A stretch of 64,000 bases of DNA from Longimicrobiales bacterium (GCA_965219445.1 CBDCNQ010000005.1:32001-96000), one strand, 5' to 3'; counted from the first letter of the stretch, positions 7,838 to 34,169 are shown. Notes: generated by a model not told the origin, from the letters alone. Program-made: numbers and translations.

Positions 7838-8099
7838 TGCACATCAGACAACGGGGTGCATGTGCACCGAAACGCCATTTCCATGTGCGCGCCAGCGCTC
7901 CCGTATGTGGCTGCCTGTCTTACAGTTGCGGCACGGCCGCCGGAGCGGCGACGCCGCTCCGGAGCTTTCGGCCGAAGAAGGGAGCGACCCCCCGGATTCG
8001 ATGCCTCGATCGGCATCGCGGAGGGTTGGCATGTGCACACCCATGCCACCCTCCCACGGGGGTCGCTCCCCTCCAGCAATCCCTAGCGGGAAGGCCATC
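7838..8099 (+). other. conserved structured non-coding element, copy A
   Basis: Homologous to 33911-34169 (minus strand) and 33645-33757; nested stems preserved despite substitutions. Confidence 0.7.
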
Positions 8100-8227
8100 A
8101 AGCGCCGCTGCGAGCGCGGCGTATCAACGAATCCGGCCGCCGGTCGCGGCTTTTCACCAGCTAGGTGGCTCGGCAAGTCGTCCCAGTGAGGTCGGCGTCG
8201 GCGCTCGACCAAGCCCGAAACTGCCCC

Positions 8228-8285
8228 GAGGTGGTTGAGGTTGCCGCCGATGCGCGCGACCTGCCGGCCGCGTGCGCGCCATGGC
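8228..8285 (-). pseudogene. mobC remnant
   Basis: RQVARIGGNLNHL next to an oriT copy. Confidence 0.55.
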
Positions 8286-8316
8286 CTGCCGGAGCGCGGG
8301 CGTCCAGGGGATCGAA

Positions 8317-8415
8317 GGGGGCGGAGCCACCCTCGCCAGCCCCTGCCGGGGACCCGCGAAGCGTGGCCCCAAAGGGTAGGCTGGCTCATGACTGCTAACG
8401 GGTCGTGAGCCAGCC
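8317..8415 (+). promoter_or_regulatory. oriT-like site with hairpin
   Basis: Near-identical 53-bp core to 6267-6319 and 32068-32120. Confidence 0.7.
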
Positions 8416-8476
8416 TTCGCGCCCCCGCTCTTCAGCGCCTGACGGACTCGTCCGCCGACACTGCGAGCGCGGCGGA

Positions 8477-9709
8477 TCAGCGAGCCGGTCCGGCCTCCGG
8501 GTCGCGACTCTTGTCGGCCAGGTACGCCGCCCAGTCATCCATAAGTCGACGTCGTCGCTCGAACAGGTCCGTGCGCCGATAGGCCACCTCGACTTTGTTT
8601 TGGACCACATGCGCCAGCGCCGCTTCGATGACTTCGCGCGGATGATCCGTCTCTTCTGCCGCCCAGTCCCGAAAGCTTGAGCGGAAGCCGTGCGGCACGG
8701 CCGCGATCTTGCAGTTCCGGAGAAGCCGGCGCAGCCGCTTTTCGTAGAGCGGCTTGCCACCCCCACGGGTGAACACCAGCGAACTGCCGTCCCCGAGCTT
8801 GCGCGCCGCGCTGAGAATCTCTGTGGCGCGGCGGCACAGCGGCACCCGGTGCTCGCGCTGCGCCTTCATCCGCGTGGCGGGAATCGTCCACACGCCCTGC
8901 CTTCGATCGATCTGCGCCCACTCGGCCCCCCGGACCTCGCCCCACCTCGCCGCCGTCAGCACCACGAACTCAAACGCGAGCTTGACGACCGGCTGCGCCC
9001 CCGACCCCCGCACCGTCTCGATCGCCGACGCCACGTCGCGATGCGGCAAGGCCCGCATGTGTGTCACCACGTCGTTCTGCGCTCCGAGGATCGGCCCGAT
9101 TCGGTCGCATGGGTTGTCGGTCCTGAACTCCATCGCCACGGCCCATTCCAGCACCGTGCGGATACGTTGGTGCACGTGCCGGGCCGTGGGCGCCTTCACG
9201 TGCCAGATGGGTGTGAGGATCTCCAGCACGTCGGCGCTCGTCACCTCCGAGACCGCCATCTCGCCGATGCGCGGGAAGGCGTAGCGCCTGAGGCTCGAAA
9301 TCCACTCGCGGCTATGACCCGGACTGCGCCAACCGGCCCGCTTCTGTTCCATCACCCTCACGGCGGATTCCGCGAAGCTCGGCACGCCCTGCGTGCGGCG
9401 TTTCTCGGCGAGCGGGTCGCCGCCCGAGCGCGCGAGCTTGCGGTTGGCCAGCGCCTGCTCGCGGGCCTCGGCCAGCGAAATCAGCGCCACGCTGCCCAGT
9501 CCGAGCTCGCGATTGCGGCCCCGGATCGCGAGCCGCTGAATCCAGCTCCGCGTTCCCGTAGGCTGCACGTAGAGGTACAAGCCATTGCCGTCGCAATGTC
9601 TGCCGGGCGGGGCCGTGCGCACGAAGGCGGCCGACAACGCCTTGTCGGGATGGCGGCCCTTGGCCTTGGTTTTCCGAGGCGGGTTGGCCGAGTGCTTCAC
9701 ACTATTCAT
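8477..9709 (-). CDS. P4-like tyrosine integrase
   Basis: DGNGLYL, ELGLGS..ISLAEAR, TAARWGE, HGFRSSFRDW, AH, VAYRR. Confidence 0.93.
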   Translation of the reverse strand: MNSVKHSANPPRKTKAKGRHPDKALSAAFVRTAPPGRHCDGNGLYLYVQPTGTRSWIQRLAIRGRNRELGLGSVALISLAEAREQALANRKLARSGGDPLAEKRRTQGVPSFAESAVRVMEQKRAGWRSPGHSREWISSLRRYAFPRIGEMAVSEVTSADVLEILTPIWHVKAPTARHVHQRIRTVLEWAVAMEFRTDNPCDRIGPILGAQNDVVTHMRALPHRDVASAIETVRGSGAQPVVKLAFEFVVLTAARWGEVRGAEWAQIDRRQGVWTIPATRMKAQREHRVPLCRRATEILSAARKLGDGSSLVFTRGGGKPLYEKRLRRLLRNCKIAAVPHGFRSSFRDWAAEETDHPREVIEAALAHVVQNKVEVAYRRTDLFERRRRLMDDWAAYLADKSRDPEAGPAR

Positions 9710-9850
9710 TCCACAATAATATAGGGGATGCAAGCGGATATCAAGGGACGCTACGGGTGGCTCAGGGCGCTGTAGAACAGTCATAACCGTTTAGGATATA
9801 ACTGTTTATAGCACTTACTAGATCCCTACGGACATCGGCAGACTATGACT

Positions 9851-15527: not shown

Positions 15528-15536
15528 GGTGCCCTA

Positions 15537-17631: not shown

Positions 17632-18561
17632 ATGCCGGTCATCAAGGTCTTTTACTCATGGCAGTCGGACTCGCCCCCTGAGACTGGCAAAGCCCTAGTC
17701 CGCGCTGCCCTTGGAGAAGCTGTCCGTCGGCTCATGGTAGACGCCACAGTTGAGCTGCGGCCGGAGATCGACGAGGACACCACTGGAATACCGGGATCTC
17801 CGAACATCGTACAGCAGATTCTCCGCAAGATCGACGGCTCAGGTGTGTTCGTCGCTGATACGACGTTGACCTACGAACGAGGACAGGAGGACGGCAGGCG
17901 GGCACCAAATCCGAACGTCTTGCTGGAGCTGGGCTACGCCCTGAAGCGGCTCGGCTGGGAAAGGGTCCTTCAGGTGATCAACACCGCGTATGGGAATCCA
18001 GAGGCGCTACCCTTTGACCTCCGGGGGCATCGAGCGGTGACCTATGATGCGGCCGACGGCTCCAAAGCCTCGGCTCAAGAAGGCCTCATCCACGACCTAG
18101 AGGAGAACCTCCGCCTCATTCTGTCGGAACTTGGGCTCCCCGGCGACTTGGCGGCGCCGGTGCGACTCGAGCTCGGATACCGCAACCGAAGAATCACGTC
18201 GGCCCGTCATGTGTACAGGCTCTCCGTAACAGCCACGAACACTGGCAGTGACGTCATCGAGGGCTGGGCGGTCGAGATCCGACTCCCCCGGGACGTTCTC
18301 GAGCCGACTCTGAACTATCCGAATATCGAAGCCTCTTCGTCTCGAGACGAGGTGGTGATGCGCTGGACAGAACTGGAGCACAGCGGCCCAATCTATCCGG
18401 ACGACACCAGAGAGGTGATCGGGTTGGATTACTTCATGGACCACGATCTTCACCGTCGGAGCTTGCACCTGTTTCCACAACCGGTCCGTGCAACGTTCTT
18501 CATCGGGGGAAGCAGAGTCGCCTTCGTTGAAAAACTCTTCCGCGAGCTGCAGATCTTCTAA
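17632..18561 (+). CDS. TIR-like / nucleoside-deoxyribosyltransferase-fold protein with C-terminal Ig-like domain
   Basis: FYSWQSD, GSPNI...KID...FVAD, PNPNVLLELGYA, LPFDL motifs; beta-rich tail (LSVTATNTG...WAVEIRLP). Confidence 0.75.
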   Translation: MPVIKVFYSWQSDSPPETGKALVRAALGEAVRRLMVDATVELRPEIDEDTTGIPGSPNIVQQILRKIDGSGVFVADTTLTYERGQEDGRRAPNPNVLLELGYALKRLGWERVLQVINTAYGNPEALPFDLRGHRAVTYDAADGSKASAQEGLIHDLEENLRLILSELGLPGDLAAPVRLELGYRNRRITSARHVYRLSVTATNTGSDVIEGWAVEIRLPRDVLEPTLNYPNIEASSSRDEVVMRWTELEHSGPIYPDDTREVIGLDYFMDHDLHRRSLHLFPQPVRATFFIGGSRVAFVEKLFRELQIF

Positions 18562-18956
18562 GGGACGGGAGGTCGCCCGAGTAGAAGTCAGCCGCCGGGA
18601 CACTGACCTGCCCCCATAGTTGCCCCTAGAGCTACGCTGGCATCAATCAGGCTTAACCGACGGATGATGTGTGCCACACATGGTGAACCCCGTGTTGGCC
18701 TGTACACTGGGCGTCATCGCCGACCCATGTCGGCAATCGTCTGCTTCCGACACAGGTCGGTAGTCTGCACATCCACTTCGTTTCGCCCTACCGTCAAGAG
18801 ATTCTGGAACGTAAGACTCGGTCGCTTGCGGAACGATGTGTGGCTTGATTAGGCGGCTTCTCGGAACCGACATCGGCGTAGGGAATCGCCAGCGTGGCTG
18901 CAACGAGGAGCCCCTCGTTTGCCGCTTGTCGCGGGCGCTAGGACCTCCGCTACCGC

Positions 18957-20384
18957 CTACACGCTTGGGCTTGCCACGGATCGAGCTGGTGCAGCCGTGA
19001 TCGTCGTCACGTCCATCAGCGAGAAGTGATGATCACCGGTAGCGACGATCTGGCCGAACTCACAACCGTCCTGGCACGCCACGCCGACACGTTGGTCCAT
19101 GATGCCCGGATAGTAGCGAAAGCGCTGAATCCCCAGGTCACTCTGACCGGCGATCCCCGTTACCATCGAGATCAGATGGAAGACTTCGAGTGAGGCCAGG
19201 TTCACACTGAAGGGGAACACGTTCTCTCGGCGGCGCAGGGCGCTCGCGGGATCGAGCCCAGCCATGTAGCTCGGATCATCCAGCAGGCCCGCCTGGTCGA
19301 GTGAGACAGCGTTCTCGTCGTACGCGCCAAGACAGCGCAAGCAGGCCCGACCAGGCGCGACGGTCTGAACCTGCCAGTCTGCGCCCCGAAACCGGCCGTT
19401 CCGGTGCCTCACACGAATGCCCCCGTCGATCACCGGTACCAGGTGGCTATAGGCCAGGAAGTTCAGGACGTGGCGTGGATGCGGACGGTCTACGCAACTG
19501 AAGAGGATGTCGCAGTCGAGCGCGGCACCGTAGGCATCCGGATGCGATATCTTCTCCGCTACGGTGCACAGATCAAGCTCTGCAGCCGTGGCGATCACTC
19601 TGACCCGCTCGAGCGCCACCTCGGTTTTGAGCCGTCCGATGTCGGCCTCAGTCGCGGAAACCAGCCGATCGAGGTTCTTCAGCTCGACTCTGTCGAAATC
19701 GATAAGCGTGATCTTCTGTAGACCCATCCGGGCCAAAGACTCTGCGACCATCGAACCCACACTACCGACCCCGACGATCCCGACGCGGACGCGCTCGAGT
19801 TTGACCTGAGCGTCATTTCCCCACGCAGAGACCGTCCGGATCAGCGCCTCGCCTCGCCTCGCCGCCCGCGCCATGGTTGGCGGGCGCGACACCCGTAGTG
19901 CGTCTCCAACAACTCGCACCTCTGGGAGCCATGTGATGCGAGGCTCCGGGTGTTCTGGCACCGCCCTCCAAGTTCGTGCGCTCCACGTTCCATCAGTACC
20001 CGTGGTAAGGCCGATGAGCGGCAGGTCAGTAAGTGCACAGGCGGCGCGGGCGATTCTGGTCTCGGCCGAGATATCATCTTCACTCATGTACTGCCATCCC
20101 GGGAACGGATGGCTATGAAGAAAGGCCAGGCCCGCGCGGACCCGTAGCGCGGCCTCTAGAGCGCGGTGCAGGTAGCTCGCGTTGAAGCTCACATTTCCAT
20201 GGATCTGACGATCACCCGGCTCCGGAGGTATTCGCTTAGCGACAAGGGCCGTTCGACGGTGCTTTCCCTTAGAGGGATACCACAGGGCGAAAGAGAGGTC
20301 CTCCTGTCCGTCTCCGCGCACGAGCACCTTGTGCAGCTCGCTGGCGAGGGTGGTTGGTATCGCCGCGGAGTTGATCTCAAGCAT
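18957..20384 (-). CDS. JAB metallopeptidase - ThiF/E1 adenylase fusion
   Basis: JAB: QED...FLHSHP-x6-SEDD; E1: GVGSVG, DFDRVELKNLDRL, CVD, DGGI, CLRC...CQDGC. Confidence 0.9.
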   Translation of the reverse strand: MLEINSAAIPTTLASELHKVLVRGDGQEDLSFALWYPSKGKHRRTALVAKRIPPEPGDRQIHGNVSFNASYLHRALEAALRVRAGLAFLHSHPFPGWQYMSEDDISAETRIARAACALTDLPLIGLTTGTDGTWSARTWRAVPEHPEPRITWLPEVRVVGDALRVSRPPTMARAARRGEALIRTVSAWGNDAQVKLERVRVGIVGVGSVGSMVAESLARMGLQKITLIDFDRVELKNLDRLVSATEADIGRLKTEVALERVRVIATAAELDLCTVAEKISHPDAYGAALDCDILFSCVDRPHPRHVLNFLAYSHLVPVIDGGIRVRHRNGRFRGADWQVQTVAPGRACLRCLGAYDENAVSLDQAGLLDDPSYMAGLDPASALRRRENVFPFSVNLASLEVFHLISMVTGIAGQSDLGIQRFRYYPGIMDQRVGVACQDGCEFGQIVATGDHHFSLMDVTTITAAPARSVASPSV

Positions 20385-20993: not shown

Positions 20994-21131
20994 GTTCGCC
21001 TCCGTGGTTCGGGGTGGTGCGGTCTCTCACCCCTATCAATCTCCACACCGGCAACGGAGTGAACCTCTTCGGCAGGGTTCACACTTTCCGGGGTACGTGA
21101 GATTTACCAAGTAGGAGGATGTGCAACCGCC

Positions 21132-21860: not shown

Positions 21861-21863
21861 CCC

Positions 21864-22784
21864 GTGATCGAGGTCGACCTGCCAATGACCGACGTAAATG
21901 GGGTGCTAGACCAGCTGGTCGAGGAATTCGAGTCTGGAGCTAATCCAGACATCGCGTCCTACGTGCGCCAGCATCCCGAGCATCGCGAGGAGCTCCTGGA
22001 TTTCTGGGTGGTGCTTTCTACTTCATCCCGCCTGACAGACGAGGAGTTCGCCGAGTCACTGCGAGATACACTGAGCGATGCCGACAGAGACAGCGTTCGC
22101 GATCTACTCCTCGCCGCGTCCCTCGGACCCGAGCTGCTGGAGCGGGCCGACGAAGAGAGGGATGATCAAGCGGCGAAGATCGGAGCGGAACTCGAACGGC
22201 TCCGAGCGATCTCTCACACGTTTCCCGGCAAGGCGCCCATCACGTTTCGCCGTATGGCTGTGTATGCCTGGATCACAGGGATTCTGACGGAGGAGGCCGG
22301 ATACGGCGTGTCACGACTGCGGGTCCAGAAAGTCGCATACCTGCTGGAGCACGGGCTATCACTCGGTATTTTTCGGAAGCACGCGAAGCATCCCTATGGT
22401 CCATACGATCCGTCCCTCACCTATCGGGATGCTGAGCCTGGCTGTCTCAAGGAGGGGTACCTTCAGAAGAGCGATGGCGGCCTACTTGAGCCGGGGCCAA
22501 AGCTCGCGAAAGCGCAGAACTACGCTCGGCGCTATCTTCGGGAGGAGTCGGTCGCACGAGCGTTGGTACTTCACGTGAGCGGCCTAGACGAGTGGTCTCT
22601 CGAGACCCTGACCACCGTTCATTCCGTGGTTGCGGAGATGGCTCGCTCCACTGTGGATGCGAAAGCAGTCAGCCAAGCAATCAGGGCCGACGCGAAGTGG
22701 CAGAGCAAGCTTCATCGGGACAATTTCACGACCAAGAGGATCGTGGAGGCCTTGCGAGTCCTCTCACTTCTAAGAATGGCCTAG
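21864..22784 (+). CDS. putative anti-sigma partner with C-terminal YwgA/SocA/DarG-C-like domain
   Basis: N-terminal PDIASYVRQHPEHREEL helical motif; RVQKVAYLL...YGPYD...LETLTTVH. Confidence 0.55.
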   Translation: MIEVDLPMTDVNGVLDQLVEEFESGANPDIASYVRQHPEHREELLDFWVVLSTSSRLTDEEFAESLRDTLSDADRDSVRDLLLAASLGPELLERADEERDDQAAKIGAELERLRAISHTFPGKAPITFRRMAVYAWITGILTEEAGYGVSRLRVQKVAYLLEHGLSLGIFRKHAKHPYGPYDPSLTYRDAEPGCLKEGYLQKSDGGLLEPGPKLAKAQNYARRYLREESVARALVLHVSGLDEWSLETLTTVHSVVAEMARSTVDAKAVSQAIRADAKWQSKLHRDNFTTKRIVEALRVLSLLRMA

Positions 22785-22963
22785 GCGGCTATAGCATCGC
22801 GGGGCCGCCGTACGATTCTCCCTAGGGTGATGCAGGTTGCACCCATCGGCAGGGGCTTCCGTCGTTAGTGGCGGACACGAAACGTTGGGCTGTCCTCGGG
22901 TAGGCGCGTACCTCCGTCTTAGAACCGGTCTGTGCTGACGTTCGCGTGGCCGAGTTTCCGGGA

Positions 22964-23200
22964 TCACTTCAATGACGTCGCATCCGTGGCGAAGCAATCG
23001 ATCGCCGCCCGGGAGCGCAAGGTCCGCTGGAACTCCTTCAGCTCGACGATCCGCTCGAGCCCGGCCTGGAGATCCCCGTACTCGTCGAGCGTGCGGTCGT
23101 CCCCCTCGAGGATGGCACGCTCGATACGGGCGATCTCGCGACGGGCCGCCTCTCTGGACTCGGATGGGCCGGAAGAGTCGGATGCGCGGGCACACACCCG
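22964..23200 (-). pseudogene. 3' fragment of a Rep-like paralogue of 32495-33469
   Basis: REIARIERAILEGD..LDEYGDLQAGL matches KELARIEEAILAGA..LEEYGGLQAAM. Confidence 0.7.
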
Positions 23201-23441
23201 CTGTGCCGGCGGAGTACCGGTGGCACGATTCACGGCAAGAAATCGTCTAAGTTCAACCAGAACTTTGCTGATGACGTTCCAAGATGGCCCGTAACGACCC
23301 GTAGTGACCCTATAACCTCTGAAACTACAGTGTGTTGCGTTACACAAGCTGTGCCAGTTCGTCTATTACTGTGCCGGGACACCTATTGTATTCTCCCTTG
23401 AATAGTGTCCTATAAAGTGATCCACAGCACGGGAGAATACG

Positions 23442-24596
23442 ATGACACGGCGACCGGCAACCCTTACTGCCGCCTTCGTACGGACGGTGAGCAAGCCCGG
23501 CGTTTACGGCGACGGACGCGGCTCGCGCGGCCTGAGCTTGCGCGTTCACCGGATGAAGAGCGACCGGCTCTCGCGCACATGGAGGCAACGGTTGCGGGTC
23601 GCGGGGCGGCTGACGACGACCGGGCTCGGCCGGTTTCCCGAAGTCTCGTTGGCGGAAGCCCGGCACAAGGCCATTGAGAACGCGCGGGCCATCGGCCAGG
23701 GTGTGGACCCGCGCGGCGGCGGCGTCCCGACGTTTCGCGAAGCCGCCGAAGAGACGATCCGGCTACACGCCGAATCGTGGAAAGCCGGCTCGCCGCTCCC
23801 CGGGGAATGGCACTCGACGTTGAGGCTGTACGCCACGCCGATCCGGGACAAGCCGGTGGACCGGATCACGTCGGGCGACGTGCTGGCGTGTCTCCGGCCG
23901 GTATGGAACGTGAAGCCAGCCGCCGCGCGGAAAGCCCGGAACCGGCTCCGCGCGGCATTTCGCTGGTGCGTTGGACAAGGCTACATCTCGACGAATCCCG
24001 TGGACCGCGCAGTGGCTGCGCTCCCGAAGGTCAACGGCAACGGCACGACGCACCATCGCGCGCTCCCGCACGGTGAGGTTCCGGACGCGCTCCGGCGCAT
24101 TCGGTCGGCCAACACGCAGGCATCCGCGCGGCTCGCCGTCGAGCTGATCGTCTTGACGGCGGCGCGCTCCGGCGAAGCGCGCGCCGCGACGTGGGACGAA
24201 ATCGACACGGCGGCGAAGGTTTGGACGATCCCGCCGGCGAGAATGAAAGCCGGCCGGGAGCATCGCGTGCCGCTGTCCAGCGGCGCGCTCGACGTGCTGC
24301 TGCGCGCCAGCGAGCTTGCCGGCGATTCGCCGTTCGTCTTCCCGATGCGGGCCGGCCGCGCGCTGTCCTCGAAATCCACTTACCGGGTGCTCCAGCTGGC
24401 CGGTGTCACCGGGACGACGCTGCACGGTTTCCGAACGTCGATTCGTGTCTGGATGGCCGAGACCGGCGTGGACCGCGAGACGGCGGAAGCCGTGTTGGCT
24501 CACGTCGTGCGCGGCACCGAGGGCGCGTACATGAGATCGGACCTGCTGGCGCGCCGGTGCGAAGTCATGCAGGCATGGAGCGACTATGTCGCATAG
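23442..24596 (+). CDS. P4-like tyrosine integrase, paralogue of 1169-2344
   Basis: GDGRGSRGLSLRV, GLGRFPEVSLAEAR, TAARSGE, HGFR, AH, GAYMR. Confidence 0.93.
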   Translation: MTRRPATLTAAFVRTVSKPGVYGDGRGSRGLSLRVHRMKSDRLSRTWRQRLRVAGRLTTTGLGRFPEVSLAEARHKAIENARAIGQGVDPRGGGVPTFREAAEETIRLHAESWKAGSPLPGEWHSTLRLYATPIRDKPVDRITSGDVLACLRPVWNVKPAAARKARNRLRAAFRWCVGQGYISTNPVDRAVAALPKVNGNGTTHHRALPHGEVPDALRRIRSANTQASARLAVELIVLTAARSGEARAATWDEIDTAAKVWTIPPARMKAGREHRVPLSSGALDVLLRASELAGDSPFVFPMRAGRALSSKSTYRVLQLAGVTGTTLHGFRTSIRVWMAETGVDRETAEAVLAHVVRGTEGAYMRSDLLARRCEVMQAWSDYVA

Positions 24597-24635
24597 TACG
24601 CGGAGGGAGCGGAGCGAGTGGAGCGGGGGCTCCCC

Positions 24636-24690
24636 CAAAGTGTGCCCTTTTCAACGGCCAGAAGTGTGCATTTTTCAGTGGCCATTGACA
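24636..24690. mobile_element. solo IS21-family end
   Basis: Minus strand TGTCAATGGCCACTGAAAAATGCACACTT followed by an internal repeat TGGCCGTTGAAAAGGGCACACTT. Confidence 0.65.
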
Positions 24691-24850
24691 CCGAGTGCCG
24701 ACTAGGCCCTGCCACAGCTGTTCGGCCCCTGCGACACAGGCTGTCTCAATTGCGGCAATTTCGCCGCGGGCAGACTCTCAGATGTACCGACTCTCACGTT
24801 GCTTGCAACGCAATCGACGTATAGGCTTGTAGTAGACAGGAGGTGTGACC

Positions 24851-25096
24851 ATGGCGAGTATCACGATCCGCAACCTGGACAACGACGTAAAGACCCGACT
24901 TCGGGTACGGGCGGCCTCCAACGGCCGGTCGATGGAAGAGGAGGTTCGGCGCATCCTTGCCGAAGCGGTCGAGCGGAATACCGCTCCGGCGCAGGGGCTC
25001 GGGACAGCACTCCACGAGCTGTTCAAGCCCTTCGGCGGCGTTGAGCTGGAACTGCCTCCGCGCGAACCGATGCGCGAGCCGCCGCGTTTCGAGTGA
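24851..25096 (+). CDS. FitA-like ribbon-helix-helix antitoxin
   Basis: MASITIRNLD..VK.RLRVRAA.NGRSMEEEVRRIL. Confidence 0.9.
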   Translation: MASITIRNLDNDVKTRLRVRAASNGRSMEEEVRRILAEAVERNTAPAQGLGTALHELFKPFGGVELELPPREPMREPPRFE

Positions 25097-25530
25097 GCCT
25101 AGTGGTGATGGTCGTGATCGATACCAATATCGTTTCGGAGTTGATGCGCGCCGAACCGAGCGCAGAGGTTCTGGACTGGATGGACACCCGGATGAGGCAA
25201 GGTTTGTTCGTGACGGCGGTCACGGAGGCGGAGGTTCGGGCCGGTATCGCGTTTCTGCCCGAGGGCAGACGCCGCCGGGGCCTTGAGGCAGCTTGCGAGC
25301 GTGCTTTCGGCGGCTTGTTCGGCGGACGGGTCCTGCCATTCGACAGTGCTGCGGCACACGCCTATGCGGAGATCGTAGCGTCACGTCGCTCGATCGGGCG
25401 TCCGGCTTCTCAAGCAGACTGCCAGATCGCGGCGATCGCGGCGTCTCGCAGCATGGCGGTGGCGACGCGCAACGTTCGCGACTTCGAGAATATGGGAATC
25501 GAGGTGGTGGATCCCTGGGCAGCGGAATGA
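25093..25530 (+). CDS. vapC: FitB/VapC PIN-domain toxin
   Basis: IDTNIVSE, TEAE, DCQIAAIA, ATRNVRDF. Confidence 0.9.
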   Translation: MSLVVMVVIDTNIVSELMRAEPSAEVLDWMDTRMRQGLFVTAVTEAEVRAGIAFLPEGRRRRGLEAACERAFGGLFGGRVLPFDSAAAHAYAEIVASRRSIGRPASQADCQIAAIAASRSMAVATRNVRDFENMGIEVVDPWAAE

Positions 25531-25574
25531 GCGGTACGACCGAAGCCTTCTCCCGCGTAAAGATCGATGCTCTG
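25527..25574 (+). pseudogene. 5' stub resembling a type I restriction subunit (HsdR) start
   Basis: MSGTTEAFSRVKIDAL overlaps the toxin stop and is cut by an IS fragment. Confidence 0.4.
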
Positions 25575-25750
25575 GCCCTGGCGCCGCGCGGCGATCGCCT
25601 GCACGCTGTCCCGCTCGCGCAGGGCCTCCGGCGCTACCCGCGCCTTAAACTCCGCCGTGAACCGTCGTCTCTTCCTGGCCATCTCGGTGCCTCCTCTTCC
25701 GACTTGGAATCCACCCTAACGACCTGTCCCCCAAAAACGGGACCACCTCA
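25575..25750 (-). mobile_element. IS3-family left end and orfA fragment
   Basis: TGAGGTGGTCCCGTTTTTGGGGGACAG end; MARKRRRFTAEFKARVA. Confidence 0.75.
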
Positions 25751-25898
25751 GCGCTTCGCGTCGCCGAGGGTTGGGTCTCCGACGAGGTCGTGCCAGTGCT
25801 CATATCGGCCTCCACAACATCAGACCCGGCATGAATAACGCGGGCTAACATTCAAACTGGACCAGTCAGCGGGGGCCGGTCACCGGAAGGATGAACCG

Positions 25899-26276
25899 AT
25901 GTCAGAAGAAGCCGAGAAACCTGATCTCAAACTGGTGACGAAGTCGCTACTGGACGTCGCCGTCGAATCTTGGCGTTTCGGCAAGGTATTCGATCGACTT
26001 CTGCTGAAAACGGATGCGGGGGAACAAGACAGGTACCGGGGACAGTTTCGTTGGTTCCAGAGAAAACTGGAAGACTCGCTCACGGACGCAGGGATGCGGA
26101 TCGTGAATGTAGAGGGTCACGCATTTGACCCGGGAATAGCGGCGACGCCACTGAACATAGAGGAATTTGGTTCTGAAGACGCGCTGGTTGTAGACCAGAT
26201 GCTCGAACCGATCATTATGGGACCAGACGGCGTCGTTAGAACTGGGACTGTCACGCTCAGGAAGGTGGAGTCATGA
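25899..26276 (+). CDS. GrpE-like protein
   Basis: EGHAFDPG...VVDQMLEPIIMG.DGVVRTGTVTL resembles the GrpE head domain; ATGA overlap with Hsp70. Confidence 0.65.
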   Translation: MSEEAEKPDLKLVTKSLLDVAVESWRFGKVFDRLLLKTDAGEQDRYRGQFRWFQRKLEDSLTDAGMRIVNVEGHAFDPGIAATPLNIEEFGSEDALVVDQMLEPIIMGPDGVVRTGTVTLRKVES

Positions 26277-28765
26277 ATAACCACATCGGTATCGACCTGG
26301 GCACCACGAACAGTGCGATCTGTTCATACGACGGCGACCTGACCCGCATCTGGAAGAGTCCAGAGCAGAATGATGTCACTCCGTCCGTGATCTATATCGA
26401 CCGGCGGGGTAACAAGTATGTCGGGAAGCGCGCGTACGACTCGGCGCCTCATAGCCCAGACAACGCGGCAATGCTTTTTAAACGCCTCATGGGTACCAGC
26501 ACACCCATCAAGTTGTCTGCCGTGGGCATCACCATGACTCCCGAGGAGTGTTCGGCGGAAATTCTCCGGGTGCTGTTTGGCTATCTGCCAGAGGAACTCC
26601 GCAACGACCCGCATGTAGGAACCGTCATCACCGTGCCCGCGGCGTTTAATCAGATGCAGAAGAACGCCACGATGCAGGCTGCGGAGCTCGCGGGCATCGG
26701 CCGGGTTGCGCTGATGCAGGAGCCTGTGGCGGCAGTCATGAGCGTTATGAAGGCACGCAACGCGGATGGCATCTTCGTTGTCTATGACCTTGGCGGAGGC
26801 ACGCTGGATATTGCATTGGCGGAGAGCCTTGGCGGTCGGATCAACCTGCTCGCGCATGGAGGCATTGCGATGTGCGGCGGGCGAGACTTCGACCGCCTGA
26901 TCGTCGACAACGTCATCAAACCCTGGTTGTTCGAGAATTTCGACCTGCCCGAAGACTTGTCGACCAAACCAGACTACAAGTCGTTGTTACGACTGGCGGC
27001 GTGGGCGTCTGAGCAGGCAAAGATCGAGCTTTCCGCACGCGAGGAAGCAATCATCAGTCTGTCAGAAACGGAAGCCCGCGTTCGGGACCAGTCCAATCAG
27101 GACATCTATGTCGACATCGCGGTAGCTCGGAGCACCCTCGACAGCCTCGTTGAAGAAAAGGTCGGTGAATCAATCGAGGCAGCAAGGGAGACGCTCGCCA
27201 AGGCGGGACTCAGCCCTCATGACGTTGAACGTGTCGTCTTCATTGGTGGCCCTACCAATTACAAGCCGCTGCGTGACATGGTTTCGTTCGAGCTGGGGAT
27301 TCCTGCGAGCGCCGAAGTGAATCCTATGATGGCAGTCGCGGAGGGTGCCGCCCTTTTTGCGGAGTCCATCGACTGGCGCTCCGAGAACCGCGGCCGCAAG
27401 AGCAACCGCGGCAGGCTCGCTTCGACGGGAGCGCTTGACCTGACCTTCAACTACACAGCCCGTACGCCGGACTCGCGGGCGAAGATCGTCGTCCAGATCA
27501 GAGGTGAAGTCATGCCGGGGGCCGAGTTCCAGGTTGACAGCCTGGATACCGGCTGGACGTCCGGTCGGCTTTCTCTGAAAGACGGTGCGGCCGTCGATGT
27601 ATCCCTGTCAAAGAGTGGAGAGAACGCTTTCAAGGTGTTCGTGTTCGATTATGCCGGTGGCCCGCTGGCGCTCGAGCAGGACAAGATCGTCATTACACGG
27701 ACCGCGGCGACAGTCGATGCTATTCCCGCGTCCCACTCGATTGGGATCGCAGTCCTCGAGAAGCTAGGGGGCTCCCCAACCATCGAATGGCTTGTACGGG
27801 AGGGAGACCAGTTGCCGAAGAAAGGCACCACCATTTTCAAGGCGGGTGAGTCATTGAAGGCCGGTAGCCCCGGCTCTCTCAACTTCAAATTGTTGGAAGG
27901 CGAAAGCGACGATCCTTCTGACAATCGGTTTATTGGACTCCTAAAGATCACCGGTAGCGATTTCGACGATGGAGTGATCCTCGCCGGCGGCGATCTTCAA
28001 TGCGACTTCGAGATGCTCGACTCCGGGAACATCGTATTGGAGGTTTCCGTCGAGAGCATTGGGGGGACATTCCATTCCGGAAGGAACTTCTACTCTCGCC
28101 AGGAGGGGCAGATTGACTTCAGCAGCGAATCGGCACGAGTCAGAGAAGAGGGTGAGCGGACGCTTCAGCGCCTCGAGGCAATCAATGATGTTGTCGACGA
28201 TCCGAAGCTAGAGAAGGCGCGCAGGAAGCTAGCGGCATCATCGCAGCTAGATCCGGACGAACCCGATACCGAACGTGCCCAAGAGGCCATGGAAGGAGTC
28301 GTTGAGGCACGTCACTTATTAGCACAGGTGCGCAAAGATAATCTCAAAGATATCCGACAAATGGAGCTGGACAGCGTCAGAGAATTCTTCAATGAACATA
28401 TCCGCCAGTTCGCGCGTCAAAGCGAGGAACACGCATTCGGCAACTTGGTTCGAACAGCTCAGCGGTCCATCGACCGGAACGACAAGGATTTCGAAAGCCA
28501 CCTGAACGAACTCAAGGGCAATAACTTCGATATTCTTTGGCGGACAGACTGGTTCGTCTTGGAGAAATTCAAGTGGATGCAGTCGTCGCCTCACCAATTC
28601 TCGGACCCGGCTCGGTTCAAGGAGCTGGTGGCAATCGGAATGAGGTCTCTCCAGAACGATGACATCGATGGACTGCGGCAAGTCGTCGGGCACCTTTGGC
28701 AGATTCAGATAGATACCGGATCAGATACCGATATGATCGACATCGTGAACATCATTCGGGAGTAG
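26273..28765 (+). CDS. atypical Hsp70-family protein (830 aa)
   Basis: GIDLGTTNS, TPSV, VITVPAAFN, EPVAA, YDLGGGTLD, GGRDFD, FIGGPT; inserted beta domain and long helical tail. Confidence 0.92.
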   Translation: MNNHIGIDLGTTNSAICSYDGDLTRIWKSPEQNDVTPSVIYIDRRGNKYVGKRAYDSAPHSPDNAAMLFKRLMGTSTPIKLSAVGITMTPEECSAEILRVLFGYLPEELRNDPHVGTVITVPAAFNQMQKNATMQAAELAGIGRVALMQEPVAAVMSVMKARNADGIFVVYDLGGGTLDIALAESLGGRINLLAHGGIAMCGGRDFDRLIVDNVIKPWLFENFDLPEDLSTKPDYKSLLRLAAWASEQAKIELSAREEAIISLSETEARVRDQSNQDIYVDIAVARSTLDSLVEEKVGESIEAARETLAKAGLSPHDVERVVFIGGPTNYKPLRDMVSFELGIPASAEVNPMMAVAEGAALFAESIDWRSENRGRKSNRGRLASTGALDLTFNYTARTPDSRAKIVVQIRGEVMPGAEFQVDSLDTGWTSGRLSLKDGAAVDVSLSKSGENAFKVFVFDYAGGPLALEQDKIVITRTAATVDAIPASHSIGIAVLEKLGGSPTIEWLVREGDQLPKKGTTIFKAGESLKAGSPGSLNFKLLEGESDDPSDNRFIGLLKITGSDFDDGVILAGGDLQCDFEMLDSGNIVLEVSVESIGGTFHSGRNFYSRQEGQIDFSSESARVREEGERTLQRLEAINDVVDDPKLEKARRKLAASSQLDPDEPDTERAQEAMEGVVEARHLLAQVRKDNLKDIRQMELDSVREFFNEHIRQFARQSEEHAFGNLVRTAQRSIDRNDKDFESHLNELKGNNFDILWRTDWFVLEKFKWMQSSPHQFSDPARFKELVAIGMRSLQNDDIDGLRQVVGHLWQIQIDTGSDTDMIDIVNIIRE

Positions 28766-28767
28766 CC

Positions 28768-30159
28768 ATGGCGAACGAGCGCTGGTTTCCGGCAAAGCAA
28801 GAGCTGCCTGACGGATCCAGGCTCGGCCGACTCTTGCATAGCGATTTCGATTGGCAGATTTACCGACTGGACAAGGAAAACTCGATACTGATCGTGCGGA
28901 GCAGTCTCGCGGACCGGTGGGTCGAATCTAAGCTCTTGCCCGACACGGTGTTGGGCTCATTCTCGTTTGGCAAAGAGGATTACATGGCAATATTCTCGGG
29001 GCCTGGGCAGAGACTTGAACCCGTTGCAGCGAGTGGCTCTCCGGACACCAAAGCGGACGGACTATCATTCGCGCTCAGTCTGCGCGAAACACGGAAGATC
29101 GGCGCGGAAGTACCGCTCCACGATGCGATATATGTCGAGCGCTATTCCCGGCTTCTTCCGACCTGGACAGTGTCCGAGGGGAGCTCGGATGACGAGATCC
29201 TGGGACGATGGCTGACTGGTGGAGTGGCTATACCCGCAACGTCGTTTCGTCGCCTGTCGAGCCTCCTGGGATGGCTTGGCAAACATGACGTAGCGGAGCT
29301 AGTCCAGGCTGCAGGATTCAGCGCCCCGATGGCAACAACCGCTTCGGAAGAAGAGACGAAACCATCCGTTCATCACCAGAAGTTTCACTTGTCGGGACGT
29401 CCGGTCCTCGAGACATTCTTCAACGAGCACGTTATCGACATTGTCGAAAACGCGGAACGGTACACAGCGCTTGGGATTGAATTTCCCACTGCCATCCTCC
29501 TACACGGACCACCAGGCTGCGGAAAGACTTTTGCCGTCGAGCGGCTGGTCGAGTACTTGGACTGGCCGATCTTCTATATCAATGCTAAGAGTGTGGGCAG
29601 CCCGTACATTCACGAGACCAGCAGGAAGGTTGGCGAGATCTTTGATAGGGCAATGGACGCGGCCCCATCGATGATCGTGATCGATGAGATGGAGTCCTAC
29701 CTCTCCGACCGACAGATCCACGAGTCCACTGGCCTGCACCATGTAGAAGAAGTTGCGGAATTCTTGCGGCGCATTCCGGAAGCAAACAAGCGCCATGTGC
29801 TCGTTATCGGTATGACCAACCGGCTGGATATGATCGACTCCGCCATTCGTCGAAGAGGCCGATTCGATCATGTTGTCGAAGTTGGGATGCCCTCTGCCAC
29901 AGAGGTTTCCGATCTTATTGACTCGTTGTTGGCCAAGGTGCCCATCGAAGGCGAGATAGACACGGGCGACATTGTTAAGTCATTAACCGGGATCGCGTTG
30001 TCGGACACTGCTTTTGTTGTCCGTGAGGCGGCACGACTGGCCGCACACGCCGGGAAAAGTGCTCTGGATGATGAGTCGTTGCGGCAGGCACTCGCGGGTC
30101 TCCCGGCACCCGAACCCAAGAAGCGACCCACCGTCGTCGTGCCCTATAGCACGGATTAG
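28768..30159 (+). CDS. AAA+ ATPase (classical clade) with unique N-terminal domain
   Basis: Walker A GPPGCGKT, Walker B IVIDEME, MTN...IDSAIRRRGRFD. Confidence 0.9.
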   Translation: MANERWFPAKQELPDGSRLGRLLHSDFDWQIYRLDKENSILIVRSSLADRWVESKLLPDTVLGSFSFGKEDYMAIFSGPGQRLEPVAASGSPDTKADGLSFALSLRETRKIGAEVPLHDAIYVERYSRLLPTWTVSEGSSDDEILGRWLTGGVAIPATSFRRLSSLLGWLGKHDVAELVQAAGFSAPMATTASEEETKPSVHHQKFHLSGRPVLETFFNEHVIDIVENAERYTALGIEFPTAILLHGPPGCGKTFAVERLVEYLDWPIFYINAKSVGSPYIHETSRKVGEIFDRAMDAAPSMIVIDEMESYLSDRQIHESTGLHHVEEVAEFLRRIPEANKRHVLVIGMTNRLDMIDSAIRRRGRFDHVVEVGMPSATEVSDLIDSLLAKVPIEGEIDTGDIVKSLTGIALSDTAFVVREAARLAAHAGKSALDDESLRQALAGLPAPEPKKRPTVVVPYSTD

Positions 30160-30162
30160 GCC

Positions 30163-31818
30163 GTGGAGTTGCTGACAAACCCTTTCTTTACGCTTGGCGC
30201 CACGATGCGTGACGACAAGCGTCGCATCATGGACCTGGCAGAAGAGAAGAGCCTGGTCTGTGATGAGGCCGCCGTGCGTGACGCGACGGCGGTGCTGACC
30301 CATCCGAGATGGCGTCTCGCAGCCGAGATTGGTTGGCTGCCCGGACTTGGGCCCAAACGCATTTCGAAGGCGATATCAATCCTAGAACGGAAGCCGGCGA
30401 AAGTACGAGGCCTAAGTAATCTGCCGAGCCTTGCTCGCGCCAACCTCCTCGCTGACGGGCTGATTCGAGTCGTCGAGCAGCTGCCCAAGCGCGAGGTCGT
30501 GCGGTGGATCGTTGAGCTCGCCGACGCACATGACGATATCGAAGCCGGGCACACCGTCGCCTTGTTGAACGAGGAGCGGTCGGTCGCTGGCTTCCCGGCC
30601 ATCTCGGATCTGCAAATAGTCGATAAGGAGCTTAAAGATCGGCGTCAATACTACAAGAAAGCGATCAAGAGAGCGCTCGATCAGCTACCTGCCCGCTCGC
30701 TCGCTGACGTCGTGACAATAGCACTCGACGAGGCAACCGATAATGGGGACAGTCAGGCGCCAATCCTGATCGACGACCTGGTAGATAGCTTTGAAGTCGA
30801 AGCGCAGGGCTTTCTCGAGACGGAAACGAAGAATATCGCAGTTCTGGTGCAGGGCGTGCGAAGTGCTGCTGAGCGTGATGAAGGCCATAAGCACATCGGT
30901 CGCCTTGTCTCGCAGCTCGAGGAGGTTGTTAAGAACTGGGACCGGGTTGCCCAGCCAATCCAGGTGAGCGCTCGTCATCGTGGTACCAGTCACGGCCTGA
31001 GTCATGAGGTCGCTAGAGAGATAAGAAGCGTTGCGGTTGACCTGTTCAACGAACATGGCCTCCTCGATATCTCCAAGAGACTGACGGCACTTCAGCAGGA
31101 GGTGTTTGCCGAGGTCGACAAAGTCGTAGAGCAATCGGAAGAGGACGCCGCCGCGCTCGATGAGATCGCTGAGCAGAGATCGCAGCTTCTCGCCAAAATG
31201 GAGGCGCGGGCTGAGTCATGGAAAAGGGAGATGACCTATGAAGCTCACGTCGGCGTAATGTTCAAAGACAAGCTTAGAATCTCACCGGATGGGGTCCAGT
31301 GGAAGGGTTCGAAGATCCCACTGGAAGAGATCAAGCGAGTGCGTTGGGGTGGTACCAGGCATTCCGTGAATGGAATTCCAACGGGTACGACATACAACAT
31401 ATTCGTTGGGGGTGAGAGGGGCGGCACGACTATCGAGCTCAGAAAGCAGCAGATCTACTCGGAGTTTGTCGACCGCCTCTGGAAGACGGCGGGTGTGCGT
31501 CTCCTGACGGAGATGCTTGAGGGGCTTCGTGCCGGAAAGCGCTACAGGTTTGGAACGGCTATCGTAACCGATTATGGTGTTGAACTACAAAGGCGCAAGC
31601 TCTTCTCGGCAAACAAACTGGTGCCGTATAAATGGACGGACCTAGTCATTGGGAACGGTGCCGGCACGTTCTACATCGCCAAGGCAGACGAAAAGAAGGT
31701 CACGGTGGAATTGCCGTATCAGGAAATGGACAACGTCCACATCCTGGAGGCAGCGATGCGCGTCTTGTGGAAGAGCGCGAGTCCCCGGTTGAGTGATTTG
31801 CTGGATAAGGCGAACTAG
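30163..31818 (+). CDS. helical protein with degenerate J-domain-like N-terminus and PH-like C-terminal domains
   Basis: NPFFTLG...LTHPRWRLAAE N-terminus; two beta-rich repeats (ISPDGVQWK...IPLEEI and VTDYGVEL...YKWTDL). Confidence 0.6.
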   Translation: MELLTNPFFTLGATMRDDKRRIMDLAEEKSLVCDEAAVRDATAVLTHPRWRLAAEIGWLPGLGPKRISKAISILERKPAKVRGLSNLPSLARANLLADGLIRVVEQLPKREVVRWIVELADAHDDIEAGHTVALLNEERSVAGFPAISDLQIVDKELKDRRQYYKKAIKRALDQLPARSLADVVTIALDEATDNGDSQAPILIDDLVDSFEVEAQGFLETETKNIAVLVQGVRSAAERDEGHKHIGRLVSQLEEVVKNWDRVAQPIQVSARHRGTSHGLSHEVAREIRSVAVDLFNEHGLLDISKRLTALQQEVFAEVDKVVEQSEEDAAALDEIAEQRSQLLAKMEARAESWKREMTYEAHVGVMFKDKLRISPDGVQWKGSKIPLEEIKRVRWGGTRHSVNGIPTGTTYNIFVGGERGGTTIELRKQQIYSEFVDRLWKTAGVRLLTEMLEGLRAGKRYRFGTAIVTDYGVELQRRKLFSANKLVPYKWTDLVIGNGAGTFYIAKADEKKVTVELPYQEMDNVHILEAAMRVLWKSASPRLSDLLDKAN

Positions 31819-32053
31819 CAACGTCCAGGCGAGTTGATGAGGATTCGGTGAGCGACGGGAAAGGGAAAAGGGGATTCTCTGGACTGTCGTCCCTCGCGTC
31901 GGACGTCGACGAGACCGTAGGGGATTCGACGCGCCGGAAGGTCCAGGGGGAAAAGCCTGCCGCCCGAGGGCAAGGCAAGGATGAGAAACAACCGCACCCG
32001 CGGGAAACAGCAGCAAAGCCGTAGCGGAGCGCGGGCCTCCCTGGGGGATTGAA

Positions 32054-32149
32054 GGGGCGGAGTCCCTCGCCAGCCCCTGCCGGGGACCCGCGAAGCGTGG
32101 CCCCAAAGGGTAGGCTGGCTCTTGCACCGTAAGGTGCTCCGAGCCAGCC
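32054..32149 (+). promoter_or_regulatory. oriT-like site with hairpin
   Basis: Same 53-bp core as 8334-8386. Confidence 0.7.
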
Positions 32150-32494
32150 CGGCGGACGCCGCCGAAGCAGCGGGGGAGGGCTTCGGCTGTGACCCGTCCA
32201 GATAGGCCCGCCCAAGCTATCTGCCGCAGTAACGCGGCTGCGGACTGCCGCAGACCCGGAACACGGCACTCCGGTTCGAATATTCCCAGCATCGTTCGTG
32301 CGCAGGCCGACGTCCGGTCGAGATCCGCACCCATTGCCGGAGCCTTCGGCGAAGGCCGACGGGGCGTTTGGCAAGCCGCTGGCGGCGGTGTCCAACAGCT
32401 CGCGTACCGTACTGGCTATCTCTAGCCGTTACAAGCGATTGGGAGATTTCCCAATGGTTGACTTTCTTGCAAACGGCTCTTCACTGTTCCGGGC

Positions 32495-33469
32495 ATGGAG
32501 ACGCGGAAGCAGCAGTTCAAGTCGGCGGTGAGCGATGCGATCGTTCACCTCCAGGGAAGCGAAGAGGCGCTCGCGCCATTCGGCTGGACGGGAGAAAAGG
32601 CCGGGTGGATCGCGTTCGTCTGCCTCCACAGCGGCGCGTTCACCCGCGTCCAGTGCGCGCGATTCCTCGATGCACACCCGGAACAGGTGCGGCGCTTCGT
32701 CCACGCGCTGATCGCGCAGGGCCTGGCCGCCGAGGACACCGTGCCCGGCATCCGGGGGATCGGCCGCGTGTGCCGCATCTTCTCCCGGCGGATCTACCGG
32801 GCCATCGGAGCCGAGCACATCCGCCACCGCCGCGACGCCTCGCCCGCCGTACTCATGCGGCGCCTGCTCTCGCTCGACTACGTGATCGAGCATCCCGGCT
32901 TGCCTTGGCTGGCCACCGAAGCCGAGAAAGTCGCCGCGTTCGAGGCCCTCGGCATCGAACGCGGGCTGCTGCCCGTCCGGGTGTACCGGGGAGCCGCCGG
33001 TGCGACTCGGCGCTACTTCCCGGTAAAGCTGCCCGTCGCGCTGGACGCCGAGAGCGCCGTCTTCGTCTACGCCGATCCCGGCCACGCGACCGCGACCGCG
33101 CTTCACTCCTGGGGTGCGGCGCACCGCGGGCTCTGGCACGTGCTTGGGAGACGAGGCCGATCCGTCGAGGTTGTCGCGGTCGGTCGCCCCTCGAGAGAGC
33201 TTGAGCGGGCACGGCGAGTCATGCGCCACTGGGCCGAGCCCTCCGGTCCAGCCGAACTCGACCCCCAGGTTCGCAAGGAGCTCGCCCGGATCGAGGAGGC
33301 CATTCTCGCGGGCGCGGTCCCGATCCTGGAGGAGTACGGCGGTCTCCAGGCCGCCATGAAGCGCAGCGTGGCGCTGGAGAAACAGGCCCGACGGCAGGCC
33401 GCCCGTGCCTCAATCCGCCGCGGCAGCACATGGCGGACCGCGCGCCTCGCCGGGGCTCGCTACCGATGA
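32495..33469 (+). CDS. uncharacterised mobile-element protein, putative winged-helix Rep/relaxation-type
   Basis: Intact 324-aa ORF between oriT and the structured element; wHTH-like N-terminus; two truncated paralogues in the window. Confidence 0.65.
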   Translation: METRKQQFKSAVSDAIVHLQGSEEALAPFGWTGEKAGWIAFVCLHSGAFTRVQCARFLDAHPEQVRRFVHALIAQGLAAEDTVPGIRGIGRVCRIFSRRIYRAIGAEHIRHRRDASPAVLMRRLLSLDYVIEHPGLPWLATEAEKVAAFEALGIERGLLPVRVYRGAAGATRRYFPVKLPVALDAESAVFVYADPGHATATALHSWGAAHRGLWHVLGRRGRSVEVVAVGRPSRELERARRVMRHWAEPSGPAELDPQVRKELARIEEAILAGAVPILEEYGGLQAAMKRSVALEKQARRQAARASIRRGSTWRTARLAGARYR

Positions 33470-33644
33470 GCGGCGCGCGACTTACGGCCGCACTGGAGTG
33501 CGCAAACGACGCGGGGGTACGATTCACACTTCGGCGCCCCGGCGATTCACACGGAGCTTCCCGCCTATCCGCTGGCGCGGCAGCGTCTTGCGCTTCCGCG
33601 GACAGGCCGGCCAGCGCTGTACGGGCGGCACCGTCCGAGGCGGT

Positions 33645-33757
33645 AGCGACCCCCCAGTCCGAGGGCCTGGTACGGGTTCGGACGCAGGTGTGTTTTCACA
33701 CCCCTGCCCCCGTCCCTTGGGGTCGCTCCCGATCCATCAATCCCTACGCGGGAAGGC
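33645..33757 (+). other. conserved structured element, copy B (diverged; may begin ~33495)
   Basis: AGCGACCCC...CCTGGTACGG...GGGGTCGCTCCC...CAATCCC...GCGGGAAGGC. Confidence 0.55.
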
Positions 33758-33910
33758 GGTTTGAGCGCCGCTTCGAGGCGGCGGATCACCCGTTCGCCGA
33801 CCGGCCGGCCGTCTGGCAGCCGGGCATCACCGAGCAAGGCCGGGGTACCCCCGATGGTTCGGGCCACAGCCCAAGCCGCCAAGTCCGGGACGCGCCCATC
33901 CCAGGTGACC

Positions 33911-34169
33911 GATGGCCTTCCCGCACGGGATTGCTGGACCGGAGCGACCTCCCGACGGAGGGTGGATGGGCGTGCACATCCAACCCTCCCCGATGCCGTA
34001 CCAGGCATCGAAAGAGGGGGGTCGCTCCCGCCACGGCCGCACCCTCTGGAACGGCATCGCCGGTCCTGCGGCCGGGGTGCAACCGCAAAGCAGCCAGCGA
34101 CATGCGGAATCGGCGGCGTGCCCATCGGAATGGCGATGCCGTGCACAAGCACCCCGATGTCGATGTGCA
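33911..34169 (-). other. conserved structured element, copy C
   Basis: Colinear with 7838-8099; begins ~35 nt after the stop of the Rep-like paralogue. Confidence 0.7.

Follow-up and report, generated by a model that had tools for sequence, protein, structure and literature searches.

The closest described relatives of the system examined here are the MOBC systems, known from pAD1 (TraX and its origin of transfer, oriT), from CloDF13 (MobC) and as the Pfam family PF13814, in which a winged helix is joined to a restriction-endonuclease-like domain of non-HUH type and the coupling-protein gene stands beside the origin. In pAD1, oriT comprises a large inverted repeat, and specificity resides in direct repeats. 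TraX has an N-terminal winged helix and is described as binding direct repeats 70-120 bp from nic (PMC12857230). In the pWBG749 family of staphylococcal plasmids, as presented in PMC8136818, a conserved oriT core is accompanied by diverged repeats, a small ribbon-helix-helix accessory protein (SmpO) sets specificity, a single residue switches it, specificity is incongruent with phylogeny, and orphan oriTs are carried by passengers. According to the abstract of a preprint, orphan origins in integrase islands (iOriTs, 52 families in six hospital species) outnumber their helpers (bioRxiv 10.64898/2026.01.13.699239). Mini-hairpins with GNA or GNNA loops are described as unusually stable as DNA, far less as RNA, and as occurring at phage and plasmid single-stranded DNA (ssDNA) origins, with G..A-closed tri- and tetraloops on one strand of the phage G4 origin, RSF1010-type ssiA and N4 promoters (PMC13037366). 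Moreover, type IV secretion system (T4SS) loci devoid of a detectable relaxase are reported to be common and unexplained (PMC3158045). Here, we analyse a 64,000-nt stretch, hereafter the window, from a Longimicrobiales bacterium (GCA_965219445.1 CBDCNQ010000005.1:32001-96000), which holds three copies of a conserved ~260-nt non-coding element and, ahead of one of them, a 324-aa gene called REP below.

This element is probably an oriT, whichever protein cuts it. Our preferred reading, to which we give somewhat better than an even chance, is that REP binds the oriT and sets its specificity, and that a second protein, c14, nicks it near an invariant inverted repeat. By analogy, a mode of action like that of the pAD1 and CloDF13 MOBC systems appears likely (PMC12857230, PMC5714925). 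The predicted architecture of REP and the coupling protein beside the origin are shared with these systems, and the distance between sites 1-3 and the invariant arm is 90-145 bp here, as compared with the 70-120 bp described between repeats and cut region there. The differences are the absence of a PF13814 sequence match, the presence of a pair of paralogous proteins in which one active site looks degenerate, and the occurrence of at least five natural specificity types, on integrative elements of Gemmatimonadota. The system is not filed as MOBC because the PF13814 profile and, for REP, the catalytic motif fail. The traits listed above for pWBG749 appear to recur as well, with the difference that REP is a 310-aa winged-helix/nuclease fold carried by integrative and conjugative elements (ICEs) and known here from sequences and models. 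The likeness to iOriTs, drawn at the level of the abstract, is that orphan copies in integrase islands outnumber helpers. Unlike in the ssDNA origins described in PMC13037366, the mini-hairpins here sit in a 260-nt element together with protein repeats, and priming is only a candidate role. A literature search, which covered sources other than subscription journals, returned no description of this ICE or element family, and the main text of a Palauibacterales paper mentions neither conjugation nor relaxase nor integrase (PMC10469786).

The element in its integrative and conjugative elements

The ICEs form an unnamed family in sponge symbionts of the Gemmatimonadota. Their operon reads, in Pfam names, AlpA-TrbC-VirB3-VirB4-CagX/TrbG-TrbI-TrbJ-like-TrbL-VirB8-REP-[element]-coupling protein-VirB11-small-ArdC-c14-c10-c19-integrase, where AlpA is an AlpA-type regulator, c19 is excisionase-like and the integrase is of the tyrosine type. 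The same operon is found at intact copies of this genome (L001, L002, L004) and in external loci, 21 of 80 of which show the order complete from VirB4 through the integrase. Minimal elements, found at seven of the 80 loci, consist of REP, the element, the coupling protein and the integrase, and possess neither pore genes nor c14. Despite the full set of mating-pore genes, the ICE gene representatives scanned matched no relaxase family. An earlier annotation of the window, made by a model from the DNA alone (the sequence-only reading), had taken element and gene for a possible replication or mobility module; this module is not free-standing, the element being non-coding DNA placed in cis at the core of an ICE equipped with T4SS, coupling protein and tyrosine integrase, as expected of an oriT.

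Linkage to REP is tight. Collection of the 3' flanks of REP homologues places the element directly 3' of the gene in 71 of the 80 loci and at 88 of another 89 intact genes whose flank is long enough, a set that overlaps the first in part. Among the nine loci missing the element, four have partial matches, two carry a REP cut at residue 178, one has a frameshifted REP, one reaches a contig edge and one has none. The intact element occupies a 295-nt gap, the sole intergenic gap of more than 90 nt in locus L029; the lack of any other gap large enough for an oriT counts in favour of the element. Its 3' motif (...GGGAAGG) ends exactly 11 nt upstream of the coupling-protein ATG in 52 of 76 copies. 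A coding explanation is ruled out by the flat conservation over codon positions (0.70/0.68/0.68, alignment columns) and by the spacing between the invariant arms, which runs through all values between 66 and 74 in 77 of the 79 copies where it could be measured, in keeping with the earlier statement that no coding frame is shared.

Searching the whole 4.56-Mb genome with a profile of the element gave 50 matches, far above chance, and a larger profile gave 51, of which 38 are near full length. A tyrosine-integrase match lies within 5 kb of 31 of these 51 copies, versus 12% for random positions. Intact REP and coupling-protein genes are both present at five copies and neither at 28. Most related loci belong to Longimicrobiales or other Gemmatimonadota bins and a few to bins assigned to other phyla; REP homologues of named source are from Gemmatimonadota or Candidatus Palauibacter, and REP is present, as two families, in 36 of the 301 genomes of the phylum that were searched. 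Copy A, REP and c14 were all without match in the plasmid collection.

Since the integrase is retained in full and minimal elements alike, and since tyrosine recombinases are described as relaxases in SGI1 (PMC9299015), one may ask if the tyrosine integrase, or some other factor, processes the oriT (as in MOBM, or SGI1 MpsA), with REP as an accessory, or if the region is a mere operator. This is very unlikely: separate end sequences, at the element boundary, belong to the integrase, and an operator alone leaves unexplained the strand-specific hairpins described below.

Repeats tracking the REP helix and folding of the minus strand

The repeats were surveyed in 80 non-redundant copies. Each copy bears four short sites, one inverted and three direct, the middle three bases of which change together: triplets agree inside a copy in 49-62 of 74-80 comparisons, whereas shuffles give a mean of 15-18 and a maximum of 32. 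Base pairing between direct repeats is impossible, so that their joint change suggests sites on DNA for a protein. The five REP columns with the highest mutual information to the triplet are 64, 68, 62, 63 and 60, and the modelled fold would make helix 62-74 the recognition position. Across 75 intact pairs, HPEQ goes with TTCAC, HHER with TGCGC, DRFK, DRWK or SRFK with TGTGC, HRRS, HRRT or RGRT with CGGAC, and HHEK or HHEI with TGCAC, which amounts to five or more specificity types in nature; a second set of pairs showed the same pattern. In 108 pairs at <95% identity (161 before this filter), the site-2 triplet is correctly predicted from REP residues 62-64 in 100 of 102 cases, counting types represented at least twice. 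When residues 45-79 are left out of the tree, 12 triplet changes are placed on it; residue 64 changes along with nine of them and ranks first of 227 columns (other columns: mean 2.0, maximum 8). It is likely, we infer, that REP is bound at the four repeats and sets specificity; an inverted repeat accompanied by repeats that track the helix of the adjoining gene also corresponds to the anatomy of an oriT. A distant REP (L177, G231:C127; 49% to its nearest relative) has helix HRQY and a repeat of its own, GTCACAC/GTCACGC, at three sites.

Folding concerns another part of the element. From arm to arm, folding z-scores are about -5 to -6.6 in 40 copies with differing inner sequences, as compared with about -0.7 in the 5' repeat region. 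Pairing is kept in 76.1% of cells, versus 70.5% in shuffles and 38-45% in slid controls, kinship inflating these values, and double-change cells number 338 versus 183 in shuffles. The outer stem hardly varies: a single double change occurs, in six of 80 copies. With all 80 copies, RNAalifold keeps two helices; the inner hairpins form per sequence and are absent from the consensus. The covariation on which the sequence-only reading relied is of two kinds. Arm-to-arm folding is real, and the matched indel (GGCATG/CATGCC vs GGATG/CATCC) is indeed present in the copies. The 5' stems seen in copy A, on the other hand, are not family-wide (5' region z of about -0.6 to -0.8, 40 copies), and the apparent covariation of sites 1 and 2, whose mismatches are A-C 27 and G-U 13, fits a concerted change of putative protein sites better than pairing.

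The strand that folds better is the minus strand, the template of the operon, in 38 of 40 copies with DNA parameters (arm-to-arm region) and in 36 of 40 with RNA parameters. On this strand, the terminal loop is of the form G..A in 71 of the 77 copies that have the hairpin (80 examined): 54 GNA, 12 GNNA and five longer. All four middle bases occur in the GNA triloops, and the closing pair is C-G in 58 cases and T-A in 18. The closing base pair of DNA mini-hairpins is reportedly the topic of one published study (PMC3201870). Overall, G..A loops number 111-116 on the minus strand and 5-10 on the plus strand, versus 25/26 in shuffled sequences. In intact ICEs, the 3' arm of the terminal hairpin overlaps the purine-rich motif ahead of the coupling-protein start; the location of this arm 11 nt before the ATG explains its purine richness but not the first and last bases of the loop. 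Wobble counts (plus-strand fold, A-C 23 vs G-T 4; minus-strand fold, G-T 19 vs A-C 10), for which a tRNA/16S control was uninformative, are weak evidence on the strand that folds. Taken as a whole, the hairpin loops are likely of a kind that folds in single-stranded DNA, not in RNA.

The sequence-only reading had proposed either a structured non-coding RNA (ncRNA) or a folded ssDNA origin working with the neighbouring protein, possibly as a mobility module. The second is supported by the linkage, by the helix-tracking repeats and by the DNA-type loops on one strand. The first, an antisense or cis-regulatory leader controlling the coupling-protein gene or a structured RNA aiding transfer, would account for pairing and double changes above shuffles and for the overlap of the terminal hairpin with the likely ribosome-binding region, and SGI1 is described as requiring a small RNA beside oriT (PMC9299015). 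We nevertheless regard it as highly improbable. The better-folding strand is antisense to the operon, and no sigma-70 promoter or terminator was found. The loops are GNA triloops, or GNNA with a pyrimidine third base in eight of 12 cases, and not GNRA or UUCG. The direct repeats, which do not pair, change together and follow a DNA-binding helix. Finally, Rfam gave the element no match at gathering and E-value thresholds, one scan returning four sub-threshold matches. RNA data, available as contigs only, are uninformative on expression: run X1 gives scattered low cover of a 4.2-kb stretch and none over L002:8633-8773, and runs X8 and X9 give almost none.

The same features may be viewed as a replication signal in place of a transfer origin, with REP as an iteron-binding initiator or with the folded minus strand as a single-strand origin priming the second strand. 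One inverted and three direct repeats with a 23-bp spacing are iteron-like, pairing is kept despite sequence change, the name of the Pfam family Replic_Relax spans replication and relaxation, and G..A mini-hairpins are described at primase sites (PMC13037366). However, the element, at about 70% G+C, contains no AT-rich unwinding stretch; it keeps a fixed place ahead of the coupling-protein gene, even in minimal elements where this is the sole other transfer gene; and the ICE offers an oriT no other sufficient gap. A replication signal instead of an oriT is thus quite unlikely, although the two roles are compatible and not exclusive.

REP, c14 and the candidate relaxosome

The model of REP has a predicted local distance difference test (pLDDT) score of 90; folded without alignment, its C-terminal part reaches 43. 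The N-terminal winged helix has a structural match at Z 8.7 (root-mean-square deviation, rmsd, 2.3; 81 aligned), and residues 115-320 weakly match the SdaI endonuclease (Z 6.4, rmsd 4.2, 119 aligned). Among viral structures, the sole match at E<=0.001 is gp146 of phage G (E 5e-4, template modelling score 0.44/0.51, 268 columns), a moderate match; gp146 itself scores as a member of Replic_Relax (E 4e-25), a family that includes the MOBC relaxases. REP shows the winged helix followed by a restriction-endonuclease-like fold that characterizes MOBC/Replic_Relax proteins, at the level of this moderate match, and it is only in this sense that the earlier label "Rep-like" holds. REP belongs to no named family in Pfam, NCBIfam, a PDB sequence search or the ESM Atlas. 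As regards HUH proteins, there is no Pfam or NCBIfam match, no HUH chain among the listed fold matches and no HUH motif in the REP alignment. Where gp146 has P-D ... E-x-D ... K, REP shows, by eye, P-V/I, Y-x-D and an invariant W. From its sequence, the nuclease motif appears to have lost the PD aspartate, the glutamate and the lysine and looks degenerate. The homologues P0035 and P0085 are VirB8-REP read-through fusions of 532 aa.

In c14, for which Pfam, NCBIfam and a PDB sequence search provide no named family, P219-D220, E238 and K252 are invariant in 27 sequences at a gp146-like spacing, the second acidic residue being absent (by eye). Only the winged helix aligns between c14 and REP (probability 54, E 1.3e-4). 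The helix of c14 is constant, HP[YHF][TA]T[RGK][RH]AV, across all repeat types (19 ICEs). Complex prediction for REP with c14 was uninformative (score 0.14).

According to our preferred reading, the cutter c14 would be recruited by REP bound at the four repeats and would make its nick close to the invariant stem; the minus strand, once displaced, would be single-stranded during rolling-circle transfer and fold, its hairpins perhaps aiding termination or second-strand priming. Lacking c14 and a pore, minimal elements would depend on those supplied in trans by a helper ICE, which would likewise render islands next to orphan copies mobilisable. We tentatively extend this proposal to a relaxosome split between two relatives of the MOBC nuclease, which is possible though doubtful: one, its catalysis lost, would be an exchangeable reader of at least five oriT types through its recognition helix, and the other a constant cutter acting in trans on the invariant folded core; minimal elements would supply reader and coupling protein themselves and hijack cutter and pore, and orphan origins, by the dozen in a genome, would turn defence and cargo islands into passengers.

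In an alternative arrangement, the element is an oriT and REP itself is the relaxase, by means of a rearranged active site, c14 serving elsewhere, for example in replication of the excised circle. D128, E142, Y101, Y164 and several arginines of REP are conserved, TraX is described as joining winged helix and nuclease on one chain (PMC12857230), and the minimal elements recall the relaxase and coupling-protein pair of MOBC mobilisable elements. Yet the substituted motif of REP contrasts with the invariant P-D, E and K of c14, and the assemblies of L038 and L041 also contain full c14-bearing ICEs (L050; L030 and L053, respectively). We consider REP as the relaxase unlikely.

Several observations weigh against REP as reader and c14 as cutter. 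The absence of c14 from seven of 80 loci fits REP as nickase equally well. The comparison of catalytic motifs between REP, c14 and gp146 was made by eye, and c14 is known from sequence alone. Neither protein is matched by sequence to PF13814 (0/68 REP and 0/27 c14 among families listed at E<=1, which in one of the two scans were 25 of 31) or by profile to gp146. On the side of the code, two non-helix C-terminal columns of REP share 7-8 of the triplet changes; phylogenetically independent pairs include none in the wrong direction but are too few (<=4 where branch support is good, p 0.25-1); the four sites of HHEKVG-type copies carry triplets of different types; and two REP-element pairs are mismatched chimeras. 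Loop and mismatch counts stem from related copies and are not independent events. Finally, hybrid copies have their crossover points concentrated at the two invariant arms, a pattern that isolates no single nick site and that homologous recombination would explain too.

Copies in the window and what they mean

Alignment and profile both support the three copies of the window, in which the motifs named by the sequence-only reading are present (Table 1). Copies A and C are 80% identical across 263 nt; between A and B, BLAST sees the 3' 62 nt only, and the profile matches B at full length. Folding z-scores are -6.95 for A, -2.38 for C and -1.68 for B. All three are orphans or remnants of the ICE-borne element. 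Copy A has no REP gene ahead and is joined at 7837/7838 to an integrase-element end; its GTG type is the one paired with the DRWQ helix of the intact REP in an ICE of the same genome (C5:8178). Copies B and C had been placed just 3' of paralogues of the 324-aa gene, which is correct for B, 26 nt past the stop codon, while C adjoins only a C-terminal REP remnant. Sites 33523, 33546 and 33695 of copy B are of the TCA type, which fits the HPEQ helix, and site 1 (33498) is of the GCG type; the coupling-protein gene is absent. The N-terminus of the window REP is likely a deletion fusion, as judged from sequence comparison: its first ~15 residues resemble the start of the ICE AlpA-type gene, and the DNA preceding it matches the left ends of ICEs.

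Table 1. Features of the ICE family in the window (window coordinates unless marked C5)
Feature	Position	Strand	Remarks
c14, 3' end	2-139	+	candidate nickase; whole gene C5:31255-32139
c10, excisionase-like c19, integrase 5' end	161-1023	+	right part of ICE starting C5:~100
ICE tyrosine integrase, 3' part	6679-7749	+	split from 5' end by inserted P4-like island
Integrase-element right end	7750-7837	+	two arm-type repeats, core, ~30-nt tRNA 3'-half remnant (-); fused to copy A
Element copy A	7838-8099	+	orphan, GTG repeat type
Copy A repeat site 1	7838-7843	-	orientation opposite to sites 2-4
Copy A repeat site 2	7861-7866	+	
Copy A repeat site 3	7884-7889	+	23 bp beyond site 2, in all three window copies
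Copy A hairpin P2	7934-7974	no strand	variable sequence
Copy A near-invariant inverted repeat	7981-8069	no strand	GGAGCGACC / GGTCGCTCC; encloses two variable hairpins, 7999-8018 and 8020-8054; candidate nick region
Copy A repeat site 4	8032-8037		inside inverted repeat 7981-8069
Copy A terminal hairpin	8080-8091	-	G..A loop on minus strand, DNA mini-hairpin type
REP, 324 aa	32495-33469	+	winged helix ~21-106 and Replic_Relax/MOBC-like domain; helix HPEQVRR
Element copy B	33495-33757	+	arms 33643-33651 / 33721-33729; terminal hairpin 33741-33753
Element copy C	33911-34170	-	arms 34028-34020 / 33949-33941; terminal hairpin 33930-33919
REP paralogue, C-terminal remnant	34223-34603	-	ahead of copy C; residues ~196-318

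Positions 1-7837 of the window are the right end of the ICE beginning at C5:~100, broken up by other islands. In the window (7750-7837) and in external loci, the end repeats of the ICE integrase are conserved while its targets vary: tRNA-Ile, -Val and -Pro-like genes (both orientations occur), genes of other integrases, and unrelated DNA. Copies B and C stand tail to tail (33495-34170); such pairs, of differing sequence types and often with the integrase gene after them, recur at L022, L026, L040, L044, L068, L089, L094 and L095. A further REP C-terminal remnant (22985-23353, minus strand), with no element after it, lies beside a P4-like integrase. The P4-like integrase island inserts site-specifically in REP at codons 175-178, within a conserved FPxK motif and with ~13 bp duplicated (left junctions C5:1180890, 648599, 608020, 951209 and 454976; right junctions C5:1188936, 963710, C4:1187671 and C2:220587); it is a satellite targeting the transfer gene of the ICE. 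A second repeat of ~85 nt, D4 (6250-6336, 8317-8403 and 32051-32137, with many genomic copies), adjoins NikA/MobC ribbon-helix-helix genes and P4-like integrases and is likely the transfer origin of another island family. The cargo between copies A and B (17632-31818) looks defence-rich, with TIR-like (17632), ThiF/E1-like (18957-20384) and DarG-like (21864) genes, an Hsp70-like gene (26273) with an AAA ATPase (28696) and a 551-aa gene without a name; beyond copy C lies a Type ISP restriction-modification gene (34638-37424).

The case shows that protein repeats combined with DNA hairpins are able to mimic RNA covariation. The family offers a candidate comprising a named DNA site, two candidate proteins, a residue-to-base prediction (residues 62-64 vs triplet) and more than 100 natural pairs. 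If true, our reading would extend MOBC to a two-protein form, provide markers for ICEs left unnamed by Pfam and NCBIfam scans, and account for the ~50 copies in one symbiont genome. The split relaxosome, if true, would moreover identify the relaxase that one class of "relaxase-less" T4SS elements seems to lack, and would amount to a programmable code of transfer specificity.

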